Source: a virus | Lineage: Duplodnaviria; Heunggongvirae; Uroviricota; Caudoviricetes | Virus record (IMG/VR): IMGVR_UViG_2529293037_000021 | Coordinates: 1-7,353 of that record | Direction: 5' to 3' (one strand) | DNA: 7,353 bases | Shown: one piece after another, positions 1 through 7,353 of the stretch | Layout of the letters: the number at the start of each line of letters is the position of its first letter | How positions within the stretch are numbered: the first letter of the stretch is position 1 | Notes under the pieces: model-generated | The model's database searches: none | What the model was told of the DNA's origin: nothing | What the model saw: only the letters and a program-made list of their open reading frames with translations | Made by a program: the position numbers and the translations under genes

Positions 1-1
1 G

Positions 2-103
2 ATAGGGCCGGAGGCGGCAGGCAGTCTTGTGCAGCTGATTGACCAGCGGGTGCAGGCGGTGATGCTGTCCATGCGACGTGACGGAGGAATGCTGAGTGGC
101 TGA
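2..103 (+). CDS. C-terminal end of tail tape-measure protein (lambda gpH-like), partial at 5' end
   Basis: Open frame running in from the window start, stop TGA at 101-103 overlapping the GTG start of M at 96 (GTGGCTGA). Position directly upstream of M matches lambda H-M order. Assignment is by synteny only; the 33 translated residues are too short for me to recognise. Confidence 0.45.
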   Translation: MGPEAAGSLVQLIDQRVQAVMLSMRRDGGMLSG

Positions 104-437
104 GATAAAAACGCTGCATCTGGTCCCGCGTGAAGGGATGCAGGTGAGTGAGAAGCCGTCGGTGGTGAGGGTGCGGTTTGGTGACGGTTATGAACAGCGC
201 CGCCCCACAGGGCTGAATCCTCAACTGAAGACGTTTCAGGCGGTGTTCCGGGTGACGGATGAGTCAACCCGGCGCTGGCTGGATGAATTTTTATCCTGGC
301 ATGGTGGTTACCGTGCCTTTTTGTGGCGACCGCCGAAACATAACCGGACGGTGAGGGTTGTGTGCCGTGAGTGGAGTGTCACGGATAATGCCCGGTACAG
401 TGATTTCAGTTGCACGATAGAGCAGGTGGTGAACTGA
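96..437 (+). CDS. M: Minor tail protein M (lambda gpM family)
   Basis: 113-aa ORF with GTG start preceded by GGAGGAA (84-90). Translation contains VRFGDGY...HGG...FLW...EQVVN, which aligns along its length with lambda gpM as I recall it. Stop overlaps the L start (TGATG at 435-439). Confidence 0.88.
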   Translation: MAEIKTLHLVPREGMQVSEKPSVVRVRFGDGYEQRRPTGLNPQLKTFQAVFRVTDESTRRWLDEFLSWHGGYRAFLWRPPKHNRTVRVVCREWSVTDNARYSDFSCTIEQVVN

Positions 438-1134
438 TGCAGAATATTCATGAAGAAAGCCTGAACGAGTCGGTTAAGTCAGAGCAGTCACCGCGGGTGG
501 TGCTCTGGGAAATCGACCTGACGGTGCAGGGCGGTGAGCGGTATTTTTTCTGCAATGAGCTGAATGAAAAAAGGGAGCCGGTGACCTGGCAGGGGCGGCA
601 ATATCAGGCGTACCCGATTGAGGGCAGTGGCTTTGAGATGAACGGAAAGGGCAGCAGTGCCCGCCCGTCGCTGACGGTGTCCAATCTGTTCGGTCTTGTC
701 ACCGGGATGGCGGAGGATTTGCAGAGCCTGGTGGGTGCCACGGTGGTCCGCCGCCGGGTGTATGCCCGTTTTCTGGATGCGGTGAATTTTGTGGCGGGCA
801 ATCCGGAGGCGACCCGGAGCAGGAGCTGAGCGACCGCTGGGTGGTGGAGCAGATGTCAGAGCTGACGGCCATGACAGCCTCGTTTGTGCTGGCAACACCG
901 ACGGAGACGGACGGAGCGCTGTTTCCCGGTCGCATCATGCTGGCGAACACCTGTATGTGGGATTACCGGGGAGATGAATGCGGTTATCACGGTCCTGCGG
1001 TGGCGGATGAGTTCGACAACCCCACCACGGATATCCGGAAGGACAGATGCAGTAAATGCATGCGCGGGTGTGAGATGCGCGGCATGGTGGCTAATTTCGG
1101 CGGTTTCCTTTCCATTAACAAACTTTCGCAGTAA
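437..1134 (+). pseudogene. L: Tail tip protein L (lambda gpL family), interrupted by a 1-nt frameshift near 808-812
   Basis: N-terminal part (ATG 437, frame 2: MQNIHEESLNE...VVLWEIDLT...GERYFFCNE...VTWQGRQYQ...VNFVAGNPEA) stops at TGA 827-829. The C-terminal part continues in frame 1 from about 811 (DPEQELSDRWVVEQMSEL...TPTETDG...FPGRIMLANTC...NFGGFLSINKLSQ, stop 1132-1134). Both parts are collinear with lambda gpL, and restoring one base in GAGGCG(G)ACCCGG rejoins them. The true start is ATG 437, not the upstream in-frame ATG at 410. Confidence 0.85.
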
Positions 1135-1139
1135 ATCCA

Positions 1140-1883
1140 ATGACACAGACAGAATCAGCGATTCTGGCGCATGCCCGGCGGTGTGTGCCTGCGGAGTCGT
1201 GCGGCTTCGTGGTGAGAACGCCGGAGGGGGAGCGGTATATCCCTTGTGTGAATATCTCTGCAGAGCCGGAGGCGTATTTTCGTATTGCACCGGAAGACTG
1301 GCTGCGGGCAGAGATGCAGGGGGAGATTGTGGCACTGGTCCACAGTCATCCCGGTGGTCTGCCCTGGCTGAGCGAGGCCGACCGGCGGCTGCAGATAAAA
1401 AGTGCACTGTCCTGGTGGCTGGTCTGCCGGGGGGAAATTCATAAATTCCGCTGTGTGCCACATCTGACAGGACGGCGCTTTGAGCACGGGGTGACGGACT
1501 GTTACACGCTGTTCCGGGATGCTTATCATCTGGCGGGGACTGAAATGCCGGATTTTGAGCGTGAGGATGACTGGTGGCGCAACGGTCAGAACCTTTACCT
1601 GGACAATATGGCGGTCACCGGCTTTTACCGGGTGCCCCTGTCCTCTGCACAGGCGGGCGATATTCTGCTGTGCTGCTTTGGTGCTTCGGTACCGAACCAT
1701 GCCGCCATTTACTGCGGCAACGGTGAGCTGCTTCACCATCTGCCTGAACAACTGAGTAAACGGGAGAGGTATTCCGAAAAATGGCAACGACGAACGCATT
1801 CTGTCTGGCGTCACCGCCACTGGCACGCATCTGCCTTCACGGGGATTTGCAACGATTTGGCCGCCGCCTCAGCCTGTATGTGA
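1140..1883 (+). CDS. K: Tail assembly protein K (lambda gpK family) with N-terminal JAB/MPN metalloprotease-like domain and C-terminal NlpC/P60 cysteine peptidase-like domain
   Basis: 247-aa ORF starting 5 nt after the L stop. JAMM-type motif HSHPGGLPWLSEAD (H-x-H-x7-S-x2-D) with upstream Glu residues; NlpC/P60-like catalytic Cys in GVTDCYTLF and His in PNHAAIY/LLHH. Strong collinearity with lambda gpK. Confidence 0.9.
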   Translation: MTQTESAILAHARRCVPAESCGFVVRTPEGERYIPCVNISAEPEAYFRIAPEDWLRAEMQGEIVALVHSHPGGLPWLSEADRRLQIKSALSWWLVCRGEIHKFRCVPHLTGRRFEHGVTDCYTLFRDAYHLAGTEMPDFEREDDWWRNGQNLYLDNMAVTGFYRVPLSSAQAGDILLCCFGASVPNHAAIYCGNGELLHHLPEQLSKRERYSEKWQRRTHSVWRHRHWHASAFTGICNDLAAASACM

Positions 1884-2461
1884 ACACGGCAGCGGAAGCC
1901 ATCCGTGCCCTGTCGCTGCAGATGCCGGGATTCCGCCGTCAGATGAACGAAGGCTGGTACCAGATACGTATTCGCGGTGAGGACACGGCACCGGAGGCGG
2001 TGTACGCCCGTCTTCACGAACCTCTGGGTGAGGGGGCGGTCATCCATATTGTGCCGCGACTGGCCGGGGCCGGAAAGGGCGGACTGCAGATTGTGCTGGG
2101 GGCGGCAGCCATCGTGGGCTCTTTCTTCACGGCCGGGGCATCAATGGCGTTATGGGGTTCAGCCCTGGCAGCCGGTGGTTTTTCTGCCACCACGATGCTG
2201 TTTTCACTGGGGGCCAGCATGATTCTGGGCGGTGTGGCCCAGATGCTGGCCCCGAAGGCAAAAACACCGGATTACCGCGCAACGGATAACGGCAGACAGA
2301 ACACGTACTTTTCGTCACTGGATAACATGATTGCCCAGGGGAACCCGATGCCGGTGCCTTATGGTGAAATGCTGGTTGGTTCACGACGGATATCCCAGGA
2401 CATCAGCACCCGTGATGAGGGCGGAGACGGGAAGGTGGTGGTTATCGGGCGGCAGGCATGA
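1781..2461 (+). CDS. I: Tail assembly protein I (lambda gpI family; N-terminal ubiquitin-like domain, Gly/Ala-rich hydrophobic C-terminal half)
   Basis: 226-aa ORF overlapping the 3' end of K by 103 nt in a different frame, as in lambda K/I. Translation contains ARICLHGDLQRFGRR, AVIHIVPR, FSLGASMILGGVAQMLAPKA, TDNGRQNTYFSSLDNM and ends VVVIGRQA, closely matching lambda gpI. Confidence 0.9.
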   Translation: MATTNAFCLASPPLARICLHGDLQRFGRRLSLYVNTAAEAIRALSLQMPGFRRQMNEGWYQIRIRGEDTAPEAVYARLHEPLGEGAVIHIVPRLAGAGKGGLQIVLGAAAIVGSFFTAGASMALWGSALAAGGFSATTMLFSLGASMILGGVAQMLAPKAKTPDYRATDNGRQNTYFSSLDNMIAQGNPMPVPYGEMLVGSRRISQDISTRDEGGDGKVVVIGRQA

Positions 2462-2472
2462 AAGCGAAAAAA

Positions 2473-2504
2473 TCCCGCAGTGCTCACGGACAGGAACTGC
2501 GGGA
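2473..2504 (-). terminator. Putative rho-independent terminator for minus-strand (sodC) transcription
   Basis: Inverted repeat TCCCGCAGT (2473-2481) / ACTGCGGGA (2496-2504), 9-bp stem with 14-nt loop. On the minus strand it is followed immediately by a T6 run (the + strand A-run at 2467-2472). Sits just after the I stop codon. Confidence 0.5.
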
Positions 2505-2622
2505 GCGTTACGAAGATTGAGTGTAAGGAATTATTCTTATGTCACGACAAAAACATTAACTCAGAGAGGGAGGATGTGCCGTTCTTTTCAGGGAGAAAGG
2601 ATTTATCGTCCTGAGGAATAAA

Positions 2623-2644
2623 GGTAAGGGGCCCGCCCCTTACC
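2623..2644. terminator. GC-rich hairpin between the convergent I and sodC genes; possible bidirectional or sodC-proximal terminator
   Basis: Perfect inverted repeat GGTAAGGGG-CCCG-CCCCTTACC (9-bp stem, 4-nt loop), 8 nt beyond the sodC stop. On the minus strand it is followed by TTTATTCC; on the + strand by TGACTGATTATTG (weak U-tract). Confidence 0.45.
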
Positions 2645-2651
2645 TGACTGA

Positions 2652-3179
2652 TTATTGAATGATGCCGCAGGCCATTCTCGCACCACCACCGCCCAGGGGC
2701 TCCGGATGGTCATGATGGTTATCACCGCCAGCATGAAGCATGAGAGAACGCCCTTTAATCTCTTTTAATGAGTTCAGTCTCGGGGCCAGGACCGGGTAGT
2801 TCGCTTTTCCGTCATGCGTCACGAACAGCGCAGGGAGGTCGCCCAGGTGTCCATCCGGAGACCAGGGGCCAAGATGTTTGCCGGTGTTTTTCGGGTCAAA
2901 GTGACCGCCAGCCGATAATGCTGCGACCGGTTTTCCGTCTTTCAGTGCCGGGGCGCAATTTCCTTTTTCGTGCACATGAAAACCATGAATGCCTTCAGAC
3001 AGAGAGTGAAGGGCTGGTGTGAACAGCAGACCGTAGGGGGTCTCCTGAATGGTTATTTTTCCAATGCTGACTTCTTTTCCGTCAGCACTGACAAGGTTCA
3101 TTGGGACTTCCTGTTCTGCTGCGTATCCGCATGATGCTGCTGTCAGCATGGCAATGGCAGCAATGATTTTACATTTCAT
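2652..3179 (-). CDS. sodC: Periplasmic Cu,Zn superoxide dismutase (SodC family), prophage-encoded cargo gene
   Basis: 175-aa ORF (ATG is the reverse complement of 3177-3179; SD GAGGG about 5 nt upstream on the minus strand). N-terminal signal-peptide-like segment [20 protein letters not shown]. Conserved Cu/Zn-SOD motifs: [10 protein letters not shown] (Cu His ligands, disulfide Cys), GGHFDP (bridging His), [17 protein letters not shown] (Zn ligands), [21 protein letters not shown] (Arg and second disulfide Cys). Closely resembles Salmonella SodCI and E. coli prophage SodC as I recall them. The six-frame ORF extends to 3686, but that N-terminal extension is antisense to J and is not part of the gene. 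Confidence 0.93.
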
Positions 3180-3312
3180 AAAACCCTCATTAATTCCGTT
3201 AACAGACTGAGCTTGCTGGTTACAGGGTAACAAACAGCGTTCTGATGATATCGCGCAATAGCTGTGCAATATCCTATCACTGCGATTAATAATACCAATT
3301 GAGAGGAACATT
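3180..3312. promoter_or_regulatory. Intergenic region between divergent sodC and J; probable sodC promoter region and the J ribosome-binding site
   Basis: 133-bp AT-richer spacer. J SD GAGAGGA at 3301-3307 before ATG 3313. On the minus strand, a weak sigma70-like pair TTGGTA (reverse complement of 3293-3298) -16 nt- TAGGAT (reverse complement of 3271-3276) is the best candidate I can see. No strong consensus promoter is visible. Confidence 0.3.
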
Positions 3313-4881
3313 ATGGGTAAAGGTGGCGGCAGGGCGCACACGCCGGTTGAGGCAAAGGACAATCTTAAGTCCACGCAGATGATGAGCGTGATTGATGCCA
3401 TTGGTGAAGGGCCGATTGAAGGTCCGGTGAAGGGGCTGCAGAGTATCCTGGTGAACAAAACCCCGCTGACGGACACGGACGGTAATCCTGTGATACATGG
3501 TGTGACAGCGGTCTGGCGCGCCGGGGAGCAGGAGCAGACACCACCTGAAGGCTTTGAGTCTTCCGGAGCTGAAACCGCACTGGGCGTGGAAGTGACGAAG
3601 GCAAAGCCGGTGACGCGCACCATTACGTCCGCGAACATTGACCGCCTGCGGGTCACCTTCGGGGTGCAGTCACTGTTGGAGACCACCTCAAAGGGCGACC
3701 GTAATCACTCTTCTGTCCGACTGCTGATTCAGTTGCAGCGTAACGGTAACTGGGTGACGGAAAAGGATGTCACCATTAACGGCAAGACCACCTCGCAGTT
3801 CCTGGCGTCGGTGATTCTGGATAATCTGCCTCCCCGTCCCTTTAACATCCGGATGGTCCGGGAGACGGCGGACAGCACCACGGACCAGCTGCAGAATAAG
3901 ACGCTCTGGTCGTCATACACCGAAATCATCGATGTGAAACAGTGCTACCCGAACACGGCGATTGTGGGGCTGCAGGTGGATGCGGAGCAGTTTGGCGGCC
4001 AGCAGATGACGGTGAACTACCATATCCGAGGTCGCATCATCCAGGTGCCGTCAAACTATGACCCGGAAAAACGCACGTACAGCGGCATCTGGGACGGCAG
4101 CCTGAAACCGGCATACAGCAACAACCCGGCCTGGTGCCTGTGGGACATGCTGACTCACCCGCGCTACGGCATGGGAAAACGCCTGGGGGCCGCGGATGTG
4201 GACAAGTGGGCGCTGTATGCCATCGGGCAGTACTGTGACCAGCGTGTCCCTGATGGCTTCGGAGGGACAGAGCCGCGGATGACCTTTAATGCGTACCTGT
4301 CACAACAGCGTAAGGCGTGGGACGTTCTCAGTGATTTCTGCTCGGCGATGCGCTGTATGCCGGTATGGAACGGCCAGACGCTGACGTTCGTTCAGGACCG
4401 CCCGTCGGATGTGGTGTGGCCGTACACCAACTGCGATGTGGTGGTGGATGATAACGGCGTGGGGTTTCGCTACAGCTTCAGCGCCCTGAAGGACCGCCAC
4501 ACGGCGGTGGAGGTGAATTACACCGACCCGCAGAACGGCTGGCAGACCTCCACGGAACTGGTGGAAGACCCGGAAGCCATACTGCGCTACGGGCGCAACC
4601 TGCTGAAGATGGATGCGTTCGGCTGCACCAGTCGCGGTCAGGCCCACCGTGCCGGGCTGTGGGTGATAAAGACCGGACTGCTGGAAACGCAGACGGTGGA
4701 TTTCACGCTCGGGTCACAGGGGCTGCGTCACACACCCGGTGACATTATTGAAATCTGTGATAACGACTATGCCGGGACCATGACCGGCGGACGTGTCCTG
4801 TCCATCGATGCCGCCAGCCGCACGCGCAGTACTGCGACCAGACGGTCCCGGATGGTTTCGGGGGCACAGAGCCGCGGATGA
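3313..4881 (+). CDS. J: Host specificity / central tail fibre protein J (lambda gpJ family), N-terminal fragment ending at a frameshift created by an internal tandem duplication
   Basis: 522-aa ORF starting [22 protein letters not shown], collinear with the lambda gpJ N-terminus ([67 protein letters not shown]) up to ...[13 protein letters not shown]. It then reads the second repeat copy out of frame ([18 protein letters not shown]) and stops at TGA 4879-4881. Confidence 0.85.
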
Positions 4882-5421
4882 CTTTCAATGCGTACCTGTC
4901 ACAACAGCGTAAGGCGTGGGACGTTCTCAGTGATTTCTGCTCGGCGATGCGCCGTATGCCGGTATGGAACGGCAAGACGCTGACGTTTGTGCAGGACCGT
5001 CCGTCAGATGTGGTGTGGCCCTACACCAGCAGTGATGTGGTGGTGGATGATAACGGCGTGGGGTTTCGCTACAGCTTCAGCGCCCTGAAGGACCGCCACA
5101 CGGCGGTGGAGGTGAATTACACCGACCCGCAGAACGGCTGGCAGACCTCCACGGAACTGGTGGAAGACCCGGAAGCCATACTGCGCTACGGGCGCAACCT
5201 GCTGAAGATGGATGCGTTCGGCTGCACCAGTCGCGGTCAGGCCCACCGTGCCGGGCTGTGGGTGATAAAGACCGGACTGCTGGAAACGCAGACGATGGAT
5301 TTCACGCTCGGGTCACAGGGGCTGCGTCACACACCCGGTGACATTATTGAAATCTGTGATAACGACTATGCCGGGACCATGACCGGCGGACGTGTCCTGT
5401 CCATCGATGCCGCCAGCCGCA
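4224..5421 (+). repeat. Imperfect tandem direct duplication inside J, period 599 bp (copy 1 about 4224-4822, copy 2 about 4823-5421)
   Basis: Direct comparison of the two segments: both start ...GCAGTACTG... and end ...ATCGATGCCGCCAGCCGCAC. About 20 mismatches cluster in the first ~215 bp of the unit and only 1 in the remaining ~385 bp. 599 is not a multiple of 3. The near-identical antisense ORFs at 4300-4647 and 5004-5246 in the ORF track are a by-product of the repeat. Confidence 0.9.
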
Positions 5422-7353
5422 CCCTGACACTGGACCGTGAGGTGACCCTGCCGGAGACAGGTACACCGACGGTGAACCTGATTAACGGCAGCGGTAAGCC
5501 GGTGAGCGTGGCCATCACTGCACACCCCGCGCCGGACCGGATACAGGTCAGCACCCTGCCGGATGGCGTGGAGACATACGGTGTATGGGGACTCTCCCTG
5601 CCGTCACTGCGTCGTCGCCTGTTCCGCTGTGTCTCCGTCCGGGAAAACACGGACGGCACCTTTGCCATCACGGCGGTGCAGCACGTACCGGAAAAAGAAG
5701 CCATCGTGGATAACGGTGCCCGCTTTGAGCCGCAGTCAGGCACCCTGAACAGCGTCATCCCTCCGGCAGTGCAGCACCTGACGGTGGAGGTGAGCGCAGC
5801 TGACGGCCAGTATCTGGCGCAGGTGAAATGGGACACGCCGCGGGTGGTGAAGGGCGTGCGCTTCAGTCTGCGCCTGACCAGCGGAAGCGGAGAAGGCAGC
5901 CGTCTGGTGACCACCGCCATCACTGCGGATACAGAGCATCGTTCCAGTGGTCTGCCGCCGGGGGAATACACCCTGACGGTCAGGGCGATTAACAGTTATG
6001 GCCAGCAGGGGGAACCGGCCACCACCACGTTCAGGATTAATGCACCTGCGGTACCCGCCACGATTGAGCTGACACCGGGCTATTTTCAGATAACAGCGGT
6101 CCCGCGTCTTGCGGTGTATGACCCGACGGTACAGTTTGAGTTCTGGTTTTCGGAGACAAAAATCGCAGATACATCTCAGGTGGAAACCTCTGCCCGTTAT
6201 CTGGGGACCGGCAGTCAGTGGACTGTCCAGGGAAGCCGGATTAAGCCGGGGACGGATTTCTGGTTTTACGTGCGCAGCGTCAACCTGGTGGGGAAATCTG
6301 CGTTTGTGGAAGTCAGCGGGCAGCCCAGCAATGATGGTGAAGGGTATCTGGAATTTTTCCGGGAAAAAATAGGAAAACTGCATCTGGCTCAGGGGCTATG
6401 GGAGCTGATAGACAACAGCCAGCTTGCGGATGAGATGGCGGAGATGAAGACCACCATCACGGAAACCCGCAATGAAATCACACAGACGGTCAGTAAAACG
6501 CTGGAGAACCAGAGCGCCATCATACAGCAGATACAGCGCGTGCAGAAGGACACAAATGATGACCTTGCTGCACTTTACATGCTGAAGGTACAGAAAACAA
6601 AAAATGGCATACCCTATGTTGCCGGTATTGGAGCGGGGATTGAGGATACTGATGGCCAGCCCCTGAGCAACATACTGCTGCTGGCTGACCGTATTGCGAT
6701 GATTAACCCGGAGGACGGCAACACCACGCCGTTATTTGTGGCGCAGGGGAATCAGTTGTTCATGAACGATGTGTTCCTGAAACGACTGTTTGCGGTGAGT
6801 ATCACGTCATCCGCCAATCCCCCGACGTTTTCCCTGACGCCGGAGGGCAGGCTGACCGCAAGAAATGCTGATATCAGCGGTAACGTGAATGCGAATTCCG
6901 GGACGCTCAACAACGTCACGATTAACGGGAACTGTCGGGTTCTGGGAAAACTGTCCGCGAACCAGATTGAAGGCGATCTCGTTAAAACAGTGGGCAAAGC
7001 TTTCCCCCGGGACTCCCGTGCACCGGAGCGGTGGCCATCAGGGACCATTACCGTCAGGGTTTATGACGATCAGCCGTTTGACCGGCAGATTGTTATTCCG
7101 GCGGTGGCATTCAGCGGCGCTAAACATGAGAGAGAGCATACTGATATTTACTCCTCATGCCGTCTGATAGTGCGGAAAAACGGTGCTGAAATTTATAACC
7201 GTACCGCGCTGGATAATACGCTGATTTACAGTGGCGTTATTGATATGCCTGCCGGTCACGGTCACATGACGCTGGAGTTTTCGGTGTCAGCATGGCTGGT
7301 AAATAACTGGTATCCCACAGCAAGTATCAGCGATTTGCTGGTTGTGGTGATGA
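4878..7353 (+). CDS. J: Host specificity protein J, C-terminal portion (second repeat copy onward) in the shifted frame; partial, runs past the 3' end of the window
   Basis: The frame with codons at positions divisible by 3 is open from the stop at 4761-4763 to the window end. The first ATG is at 4878 and overlaps the stop of the N-terminal fragment (ATGA). Translation ([15 protein letters not shown]...[18 protein letters not shown]...[33 protein letters not shown]...[11 protein letters not shown]...VFLKRL...[14 protein letters not shown]...) is collinear with the lambda gpJ middle and C-terminal regions. Whether translation actually starts at 4878 is unknown. Confidence 0.6.

Follow-up and report, generated by a model that had tools for sequence, protein, structure and literature searches.

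A tail-module contig of Escherichia coli DEC3E with interrupted L and J genes beside an intact sodC is probably assembled from three O157:H7 prophages

Introduction

Lambdoid prophages of Escherichia coli strains that make Shiga toxin (Stx), known as STEC, Stx and non-Stx alike, carry a lambda-type tail tip module, gpM-gpL-gpK-gpI-gpJ. In O157:H7, defective prophages that keep cargo genes and preferentially lose structural genes have been documented from closed genomes (PMC2669165, Asadulghani et al. 2009; PMC5359411, Shaaban et al. 2016), and paralogous prophage regions of this kind are not resolvable with short reads (PMC5359411). Among the genes carried is sodC-F1/sodC-F2 of O157:H7 (CP-933R/CP-933V; D'Orazio et al. 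2008, PMC2569942), which lies in the I-J interval in opposite orientation. SodC-F is expressed in log phase and anaerobically in an RpoS-independent manner, and the F1/F2 enzyme has been reported to be active and to contribute to peroxide resistance (PMC2569942).

Here, we examine the IMG/VR record IMGVR_UViG_2529293037_000021, all 7353 bp of which (hereafter the window) form such a tail module with sodC between I and J. Gene order and Pfam families agree with those of the STEC prophages, and annotated prophages in their hundreds, as well as Stx1a- and Stx2a-converting phages, are 92-97% identical to the window at the DNA level. Unlike these modules, L and J of the window are interrupted, and its pieces are scattered over three prophages in the closest closed genome. 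An earlier sequence-only reading considered that the window, if its lesions are real, fits a cryptic prophage in which tail genes erode and sodC is kept under selection, and named as the alternative that both lesions are artefacts of assembling near-identical lambdoid prophages. Based on comparisons with closed genomes, we propose that the window is probably a chimeric or collapsed repeat contig rather than one locus, and that the arrangement of broken L and J beside an intact sodC is mostly a product of assembly.

Results

The contig consists of multi-copy sequence

The window equals the whole of contig AIFI01000016.1 in the draft assembly GCA_000249335.2, derived from an O157:H7-like E. coli; the proteins of the contig are listed at NCBI under the strain name DEC3E. 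The contig holds the lambdoid tail module alone, i.e. a multi-copy repeat, spanning from the 3' end of H to ~32 nt short of the J stop codon, with both ends inside the repeat. The left end, 95 nt upstream of M, falls in a sequence present in four copies, as the M product is found four times in single closed O157 genomes. Using the whole window as query against 5426 complete E. coli genomes, the closed-genome set employed throughout, the module was found at a median of 3 places per genome over all genomes, and at up to 14 among the closed genomes listed.

Exact segments of three prophages account for the window

As sole source panel for decomposing the window we used the closed O157:H7 genome E32511 (NZ_CP038380.1), to which two clues pointed. 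Positions 812-1878 are 100% identical in two closed genomes only, E32511 (in its ompW-integrated prophage) and OkiPb01717, and the junction of the J duplication described below is present in E32511, too. The panel comprises three tail modules, residing in a ydfJ prophage at ~2.62 Mb, an ompW prophage at ~2.92 Mb and a sodC prophage by tccP2 at ~3.51 Mb; their intervals are ~2.612-2.630, 2.917-2.936 and 3.506-3.518 Mb, respectively. Exact matches of at least 20 nt to E32511 cover 99.8% of the window in 40 tiles, leaving 13 of 7353 bases uncovered. The sources are interleaved, with 1925 nt (26%) following the ydfJ, 1808 nt (25%) the ompW and 3607 nt (49%) the sodC prophage, and at least six switches between them (Table 1). 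Site-by-site tracks similarly display long runs that follow the private alleles of one prophage and then those of another. In the closed genome, the segments that match the window sit in three separate prophages.

Orthologous prophages gave another picture. For two further closed O157 genomes, the sodC prophage maps 91-92% to that of E32511, and the CEC13004 ydfJ prophage maps 95% to its E32511 counterpart, the largest tiles of these controls being 2.7-4.4 kb; the same prophage is 99.8-99.9% identical over 6.7 kb across independent closed O157 genomes. Unlike these controls, the window, a wholly multi-copy element ending inside itself, decomposes into exact segments of different paralogues. 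Its best full-length match in the closed genomes reaches 96.9% identity, or 97.7% over 94% of the window, and lacks the duplication. The K product, like the truncated L and J products, is recorded in no other assembly.

This single-genome panel with orthologue controls represents the discriminating test. Painting against a mixed panel of 18 loci was not diagnostic for chimerism, as the window gave 34 tiles and genuine closed-genome modules 10-97. A pure majority-rule consensus of collapsed copies was likewise ruled out, through 52 ompW-only sites in L-K-I and the sodC-only sites in the 3' part of J; the observed pattern agrees better with a path-type chimera that has locally mixed zones. The window thus resembles collapsed or chimeric repeat contigs of poly-lysogenic drafts in its repeat-only content, the position of both ends in repeat, the interleaved sources and an indel at a join, and differs from typical collapsed contigs in that it tracks single-copy private alleles over ~1 kb blocks instead of a pure majority consensus.

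Alternatively, the contig may be faithful and represent one defective sodC prophage of DEC3E, with a real 1-bp deletion in L, a real 599-bp duplication in J and sodC kept for host benefit. Both lesions do stand in the deposited sequence. However, such a prophage would need at least four gene-conversion tracts among three prophages in addition to a deletion placed exactly at a tract boundary, and yet it would have accumulated almost no point divergence from the E32511 alleles (the 13 uncovered bases). The restriction of the contig to repeat sequence, the absence of its truncated L and J products and of its K product from every other assembly and the absence of the L lesion from closed genomes (see below) also speak against it, and we consider this scenario highly improbable.

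The L frameshift coincides with a switch of source

As the sequence-only reading stated, L is disrupted in the sequence as given. One base is missing at 810/811, so that the frame opened by the ATG at 437 ends at 827-829 and the downstream portion of L is read in a different frame up to 1134. Insertion of one base restores a 232-amino-acid (aa) L, which has 2 aa differences from its counterpart in the ompW prophage of E32511. The deletion affects a third-codon position at which intact paralogues read GCG, GCC or GCA, one of the 24 three-allele columns among 2069 (1.2%) in the comparison panel, and it lies between exact E32511 tiles, the ydfJ type ending at 807 and the ompW type restarting at 810. 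All three L genes of E32511 are annotated as intact. The deletion (GGAGGCGACC) was found in none of the ~6000 L copies of the closed genomes, the best match being 161/162. The 130-aa L fragment is recorded only in AIFI01000016.1, and the 93-aa open reading frame (ORF) of the L C-terminus matches only genes cut by contig ends.

The local sequence suggests how the base may have been lost. When GGCGGACC is merged with GGCCGACC, keeping the shorter run of each base per column, exactly the observed GGCGACC is obtained, and column-by-column merging of this type is a candidate mechanism. The frameshift, the position of which is established, would then represent a consensus error generated where ydfJ-type reads (GCGG) met ompW-type reads (GCCG). 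Taken together, the L deletion is very probably a consensus artefact.

We also considered that repeat collapse played no part and that a plain platform error, i.e. a homopolymer under-call, affected an otherwise correctly assembled L. The gap fits the loss of a C from CC or of a G from GG, and the same loss is present in a second draft contig. However, two identical bases make a weak homopolymer context, and a random error would rarely strike a site that coincides both with the switch between 100% identical blocks of 807 and 1069 nt and with a three-allele column, making this explanation extremely unlikely. In the second contig (L043, IMGVR_UViG_2526164630_000016, 9635 bp), the L at 4748-5140 has the identical deletion, which splits L into 130 and 97 aa and has a different flanking haplotype. 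Recurrence there, combined with absence from closed genomes, points to a systematic consensus error at the multi-allelic L site.

A different L lesion occurs in an O157:H7 prophage of strain 319 (L037:10342-10967 and L041:2929-3554; ~window 437-799), where, through a deletion of K and I, L breaks off at exactly window position 799 and joins the final ~25 nt of I. J of that prophage is annotated as frameshifted and sodC is lacking, i.e. the tail module is genuinely decayed. The L-to-I deletion junction is present in 243 of the 5426 closed genomes. A prophage of the strain 319 type was evaluated as left-hand parent of the window and matches 1-799 at 100%. It is not needed, however, since the ydfJ prophage of E32511, in which L is intact, already accounts for 1-807.

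The J lesion is a 599-bp duplication shared with closed genomes

J is also disrupted in the sequence as given, in line with the sequence-only reading, although by a 599-bp direct tandem duplication and not by a point frameshift. The unit length, 599, is not divisible by 3, so that the J frame from 3313 stops at 4879-4881, and removal of either copy yields an open J frame of 1147 codons that extends to the sequence end. The copies differ at 22 positions, 21 of which lie within the first 211 nt. The junction, GCCGCAC followed directly by GCGCAGTACTG, is 100% identical over a 60-nt query centred on it in 65 of the 5426 closed genomes, including EC4115, TW14359, SS52, ATCC 43889 and E32511; in the latter, the annotation splits the duplicated J into two pseudogene pieces ('host specificity protein J' and 'phage tail tip domain-containing protein'), and such a split is also listed for EC4115, TW14359 and others. 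The duplication itself is hence a real pseudogenising allele of O157:H7.

The context of the duplication in the window is another matter. In E32511, CEC13004 and AR-0427, the three closed genomes inspected for the junction context, it lies each time in the prophage integrated at ydfJ; this prophage lacks sodC, its L, K and I are intact, and both copies of the duplicated J unit are of ydfJ type. The sodC prophages of E32511 and CEC13004 have an intact L and an intact 3474-bp J. The J of the window is of sodC-prophage type and contains a junction and copy 2 of ydfJ type, and an ompW-type patch starts copy 1. Compared with the known split J pseudogene of the ydfJ-integrated prophage, the junction is identical (60/60 nt) and so is the ydfJ-type copy 2, whereas the known element has both copies of ydfJ type, an extra 1-nt deletion in copy 1 and no sodC. 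Exact matches of window 4900-5040 or 4190-4310 were not found in the closed genomes, the best matches having 2 mismatches, and the 522-aa J fragment is recorded only in AIFI01000016.1.

These comparisons suggest that the J duplication of DEC3E belongs to its ydfJ prophage, without sodC, as in the three closed genomes. The switches in J fall inside ~250-390 bp stretches that are identical between the paralogues, across which an assembler cannot phase. Reads from at least three paralogous lambdoid tail modules (ydfJ, ompW and sodC prophages) of an E32511-like O157:H7 genome were thus probably assembled together, with the duplication of the ydfJ prophage threaded into the J of the sodC prophage through these ~250 to 390 bp identical stretches.

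The contig could instead be partly faithful, in that gene conversion from the ydfJ prophage truly placed the duplication in the sodC prophage of DEC3E, and only the L frameshift and the left joins are assembly or sequencing errors. A single conversion tract of ~0.7-1.2 kb (~4467-5458) would account for J, as both flanks are of sodC-prophage type, natural exchange between these prophages is indicated by strain 319 (see Discussion), and a draft contig, L042, has the duplication in another context, together with the L-I deletion. Conversely, the duplication is found in the ydfJ prophage, with both copies of ydfJ type, in the three closed genomes inspected, the ompW-type patch at 4191-4466 in copy 1 requires one more event, the same contig demonstrably switches sources elsewhere, and L042 is itself a short draft contig. 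We therefore regard partial faithfulness as very unlikely.

Further rearrangements of J were observed. L042 (IMGVR_UViG_2531839369_000016, 4950 bp) has both the L-to-I deletion and the 599-bp J duplication, an arrangement found in none of the closed loci compared; here, either the duplication sits in a further prophage context or the contig is chimeric as well. The ompW-prophage J of CEC13004 (L011:11851-14706; ~window 4224-5441) has an in-frame 618-bp deletion, the left breakpoint of which (ending in GCCATT) is the start point of the 599-bp unit in the ydfJ-prophage J of the same genome. This shared breakpoint could mark a hot spot of recombination, or both lesions could stem from one unequal exchange between J paralogues. 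In two other short draft contigs, the J proteins (P0001 and P0002) exhibit different in-frame internal duplications, one with the junction TKMDA-VVVDNLPP; such putative internal J duplications recur in draft assemblies. Finally, six single-base differences of the window are not explained by the three E32511 modules, at 4953, 4974, 5295, 6928, 7013 and 7301; all but 7013 match none of the compared loci, and those at 4953 (Cys to Arg) and 4974 (Gln to Lys) change copy 2.

sodC is an ordinary copy of the conserved cassette

The prophage sodC of O157:H7 has an analogue in sodCI of Salmonella Gifsy-2. In the window, sodC is intact, as the sequence-only reading proposed, encoding 175 aa, with a Shine-Dalgarno motif (GAGG) 5 nt ahead of the ATG at 3179, a terminator-like hairpin at 2645-2622 and a second terminator-like site at 2490-2474; a sigma-70 promoter scan upstream of the gene returned no site. 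The translation has a hydrophobic N-terminus and the motifs GFHVHE, GGHFDP and HAGGDN, as expected for the SodC-F class, and is identical to the product WP_000649829.1, annotated as sodC in closed genomes. T at nt 335, giving Leu112, identifies the sodC-F1 type (compared with PMC2569942). Product, Leu112, location between I and J and opposite orientation all agree with the described O157:H7 sodC-F cassettes, from which the window cassette is set apart by no distinctive feature. The cassette is present in 646 of the 5426 closed genomes, at 99% identity or more in 542 of these, and is also carried by Stx2a-converting phages. Hence, the sodC of the window is intact and represents a usual member of the conserved sodC-F cassettes of prophages. 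We note that a 344-aa ORF on the minus strand (2652-3686) prolongs the sodC frame into the start of J; it is a stop-free run and not a gene, the annotated start of sodC being the ATG at 3179.

Gene content of the tail module

Homologues of M, L, K, I and J are all present, in this order and on one strand, as in annotated prophages, and every Pfam assignment (M, L in two halves, K, I, Sod_Cu and J in two parts) scores above the curated cut-offs (Table 1). The stops at 827-829 and 4879-4881 interrupt L and J in the deposited sequence but probably not in the underlying prophages. The exact gpI-like protein was found in 12 contigs, and the DNA of its gene alternates between paralogue types.

Table 1. 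Genes, lesions and source blocks of the window (positions in the 7353-bp contig).
Feature	Position	Strand	Basis
Tape-measure gene, 3' end (3243-bp H type)	1..95	+	Aligns with end of annotated tape-measure coding sequence in loci L001, L003, L053
gpM-like minor tail protein, intact, 113 aa	96..437	+	Pfam Phage_min_tail, E=4.8e-29
gpL N-terminal fragment, 130 aa, last 5 out of frame	437..829	+	Pfam Phage_tail_L, profile positions 3-98 of 206
1-bp deletion in L (810/811)	808..811	+	GGAGGC-GACC aligned with five intact L genes
gpL C-terminal part, shifted frame	841..1134	+	Pfam Phage_tail_L, profile positions 109-206
gpK-like tail protein, intact (JAB + NlpC/P60)	1140..1883	+	Pfam Prok-JAB and NLPC_P60
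gpI-like tail assembly protein, intact, 193 aa	1880..2461	+	Pfam Lambda_tail_I
sodC cassette (moron) between I and J, 821 bp	2491..3311	.	BLAST boundaries against locus L001; replaces ~311 bp of sodC-less prophages
Terminator-like hairpin downstream of sodC, 10-bp, GC-rich	2622..2645	-	Hairpin scan
sodC, periplasmic Cu,Zn superoxide dismutase, intact, 175 aa	2652..3179	-	Pfam Sod_Cu PF00080, E=3.9e-32, 133/133 profile positions
gpJ N-terminal ORF, 522 aa, last 18 out of frame	3313..4881	+	Pfam FNIII-A_GpJ, Phage-tail_3
Duplicated unit of J, copy 1, ompW/sodC-prophage haplotype	4224..4822	+	Sequence comparison
Duplicated unit of J, copy 2, ydfJ-prophage haplotype	4823..5421	+	Junction at 4822/4823
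Remainder of gpJ, open to contig end	4824..7353	+	Stop-free; Pfam Ig_J, Ig_J_second, Phage_Tail_Tip, Ig_GpJ_C
ydfJ-prophage block, 100% identical	1..807		Exact E32511 tile
ompW-prophage block, 100% identical	810..1878		Exact E32511 tile
Fine alternation of types	1879-2459		Site-by-site comparison
E32511/O157 sodC-prophage block, 100% identical	2461..3626		Exact tile
sodC-prophage type with seven sites of other types	3627-4190		Site-by-site comparison
ompW-prophage-type patch, start of copy 1	4191..4466		Tiles and site tracks
ydfJ-prophage-type block with duplication junction and copy 2	4716..5422		Tiles and site tracks
sodC-prophage-type J 3' part	5423..7353		232 sites matched by sodC prophage alone

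Discussion

Our comparisons do not bear out the sequence-only reading of the window as a single cryptic prophage with eroding tail genes and a selected sodC, as segments of three E32511 prophages cover nearly all of it and the L frameshift lies at a switch of source and in no closed genome. The alternative of artefacts from near-identical lambdoid prophages is favoured: it agrees with the L deletion at the switch and with the placement of the J duplication beside sodC, the duplication itself being real.

Several observations weigh against a chimeric contig. The chimerism is inferred from sequence comparison. DEC3E and E32511 could not be shown to be one clone, and no paper linking them was found. 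Lambdoid tail modules are natural mosaics, so patchwork alone is not diagnostic, as the mixed-panel painting illustrates, and the contig obeys no simple majority rule, keeping alleles private to one copy over ~1 kb blocks. A natural L allele, in strain 2013C-4187, has the same local haplotype over the switch (737-983), and the context of the J duplication was examined in only 3 of the 65 closed genomes. Furthermore, in the sodC prophage of closed strain 319 (L052:5823-9295), where sodC is intact, the annotation gives the neighbouring J (3473 bp) a frameshift, which could be a long-read indel error, and this prophage is partly ydfJ-like, its K being the ydfJ-prophage allele. The K allele demonstrates that natural exchange between these prophages happens, and the strain 319 sodC prophage as a whole indicates that exchange between prophages and J decay beside sodC are both genuine events. 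In view of these points, we rate a faithful or partly faithful contig, both versions combined, as unlikely but not negligible.

Some support for full faithfulness also comes from what is known of O157 prophages in general. These are mostly defective, with structural genes preferentially lost (PMC2669165 Table 1; PMC5359411), and prophage SodC-F contributes to peroxide resistance (PMC2569942). Closed genomes moreover hold real tail lesions, namely the truncated L with K and I deleted (243 genomes), the split J (65 genomes) and the frameshifted J by sodC in strain 319. There is a slim chance that the contig is faithful and that the sodC prophage of DEC3E received the disabling J duplication and the other tracts by gene conversion from co-resident prophages. 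If so, pseudogenising lesions would pass from one paralogous prophage to another inside a single genome ('concerted decay'), with the sodC cassette left untouched.

The general idea behind the sequence-only reading, that defective O157 prophages keep cargo and lose structural genes, is correct but already published (PMC2669165, PMC5359411). The concept shared with that defective prophage pool, i.e. loss of morphogenesis functions and retention of cargo genes, rests on closed genomes, and the window cannot show it because its lesions and sodC probably do not reside on one prophage. As a biological claim it would add little, as cargo-keeping defective O157 prophages are already known from closed genomes.

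In conclusion, the window most likely contains no new biology, and the earlier reading is most likely wrong for this locus. It does provide a caution, in that short stand-alone contigs of poly-lysogenic STEC drafts can merge prophages, thereby creating or relocating 'pseudogenes', and neither gene decay nor selection on cargo should be inferred from such contigs. The real element is the 599-bp J duplication of the 65 closed O157:H7 genomes, which could serve as a lineage or prophage marker.

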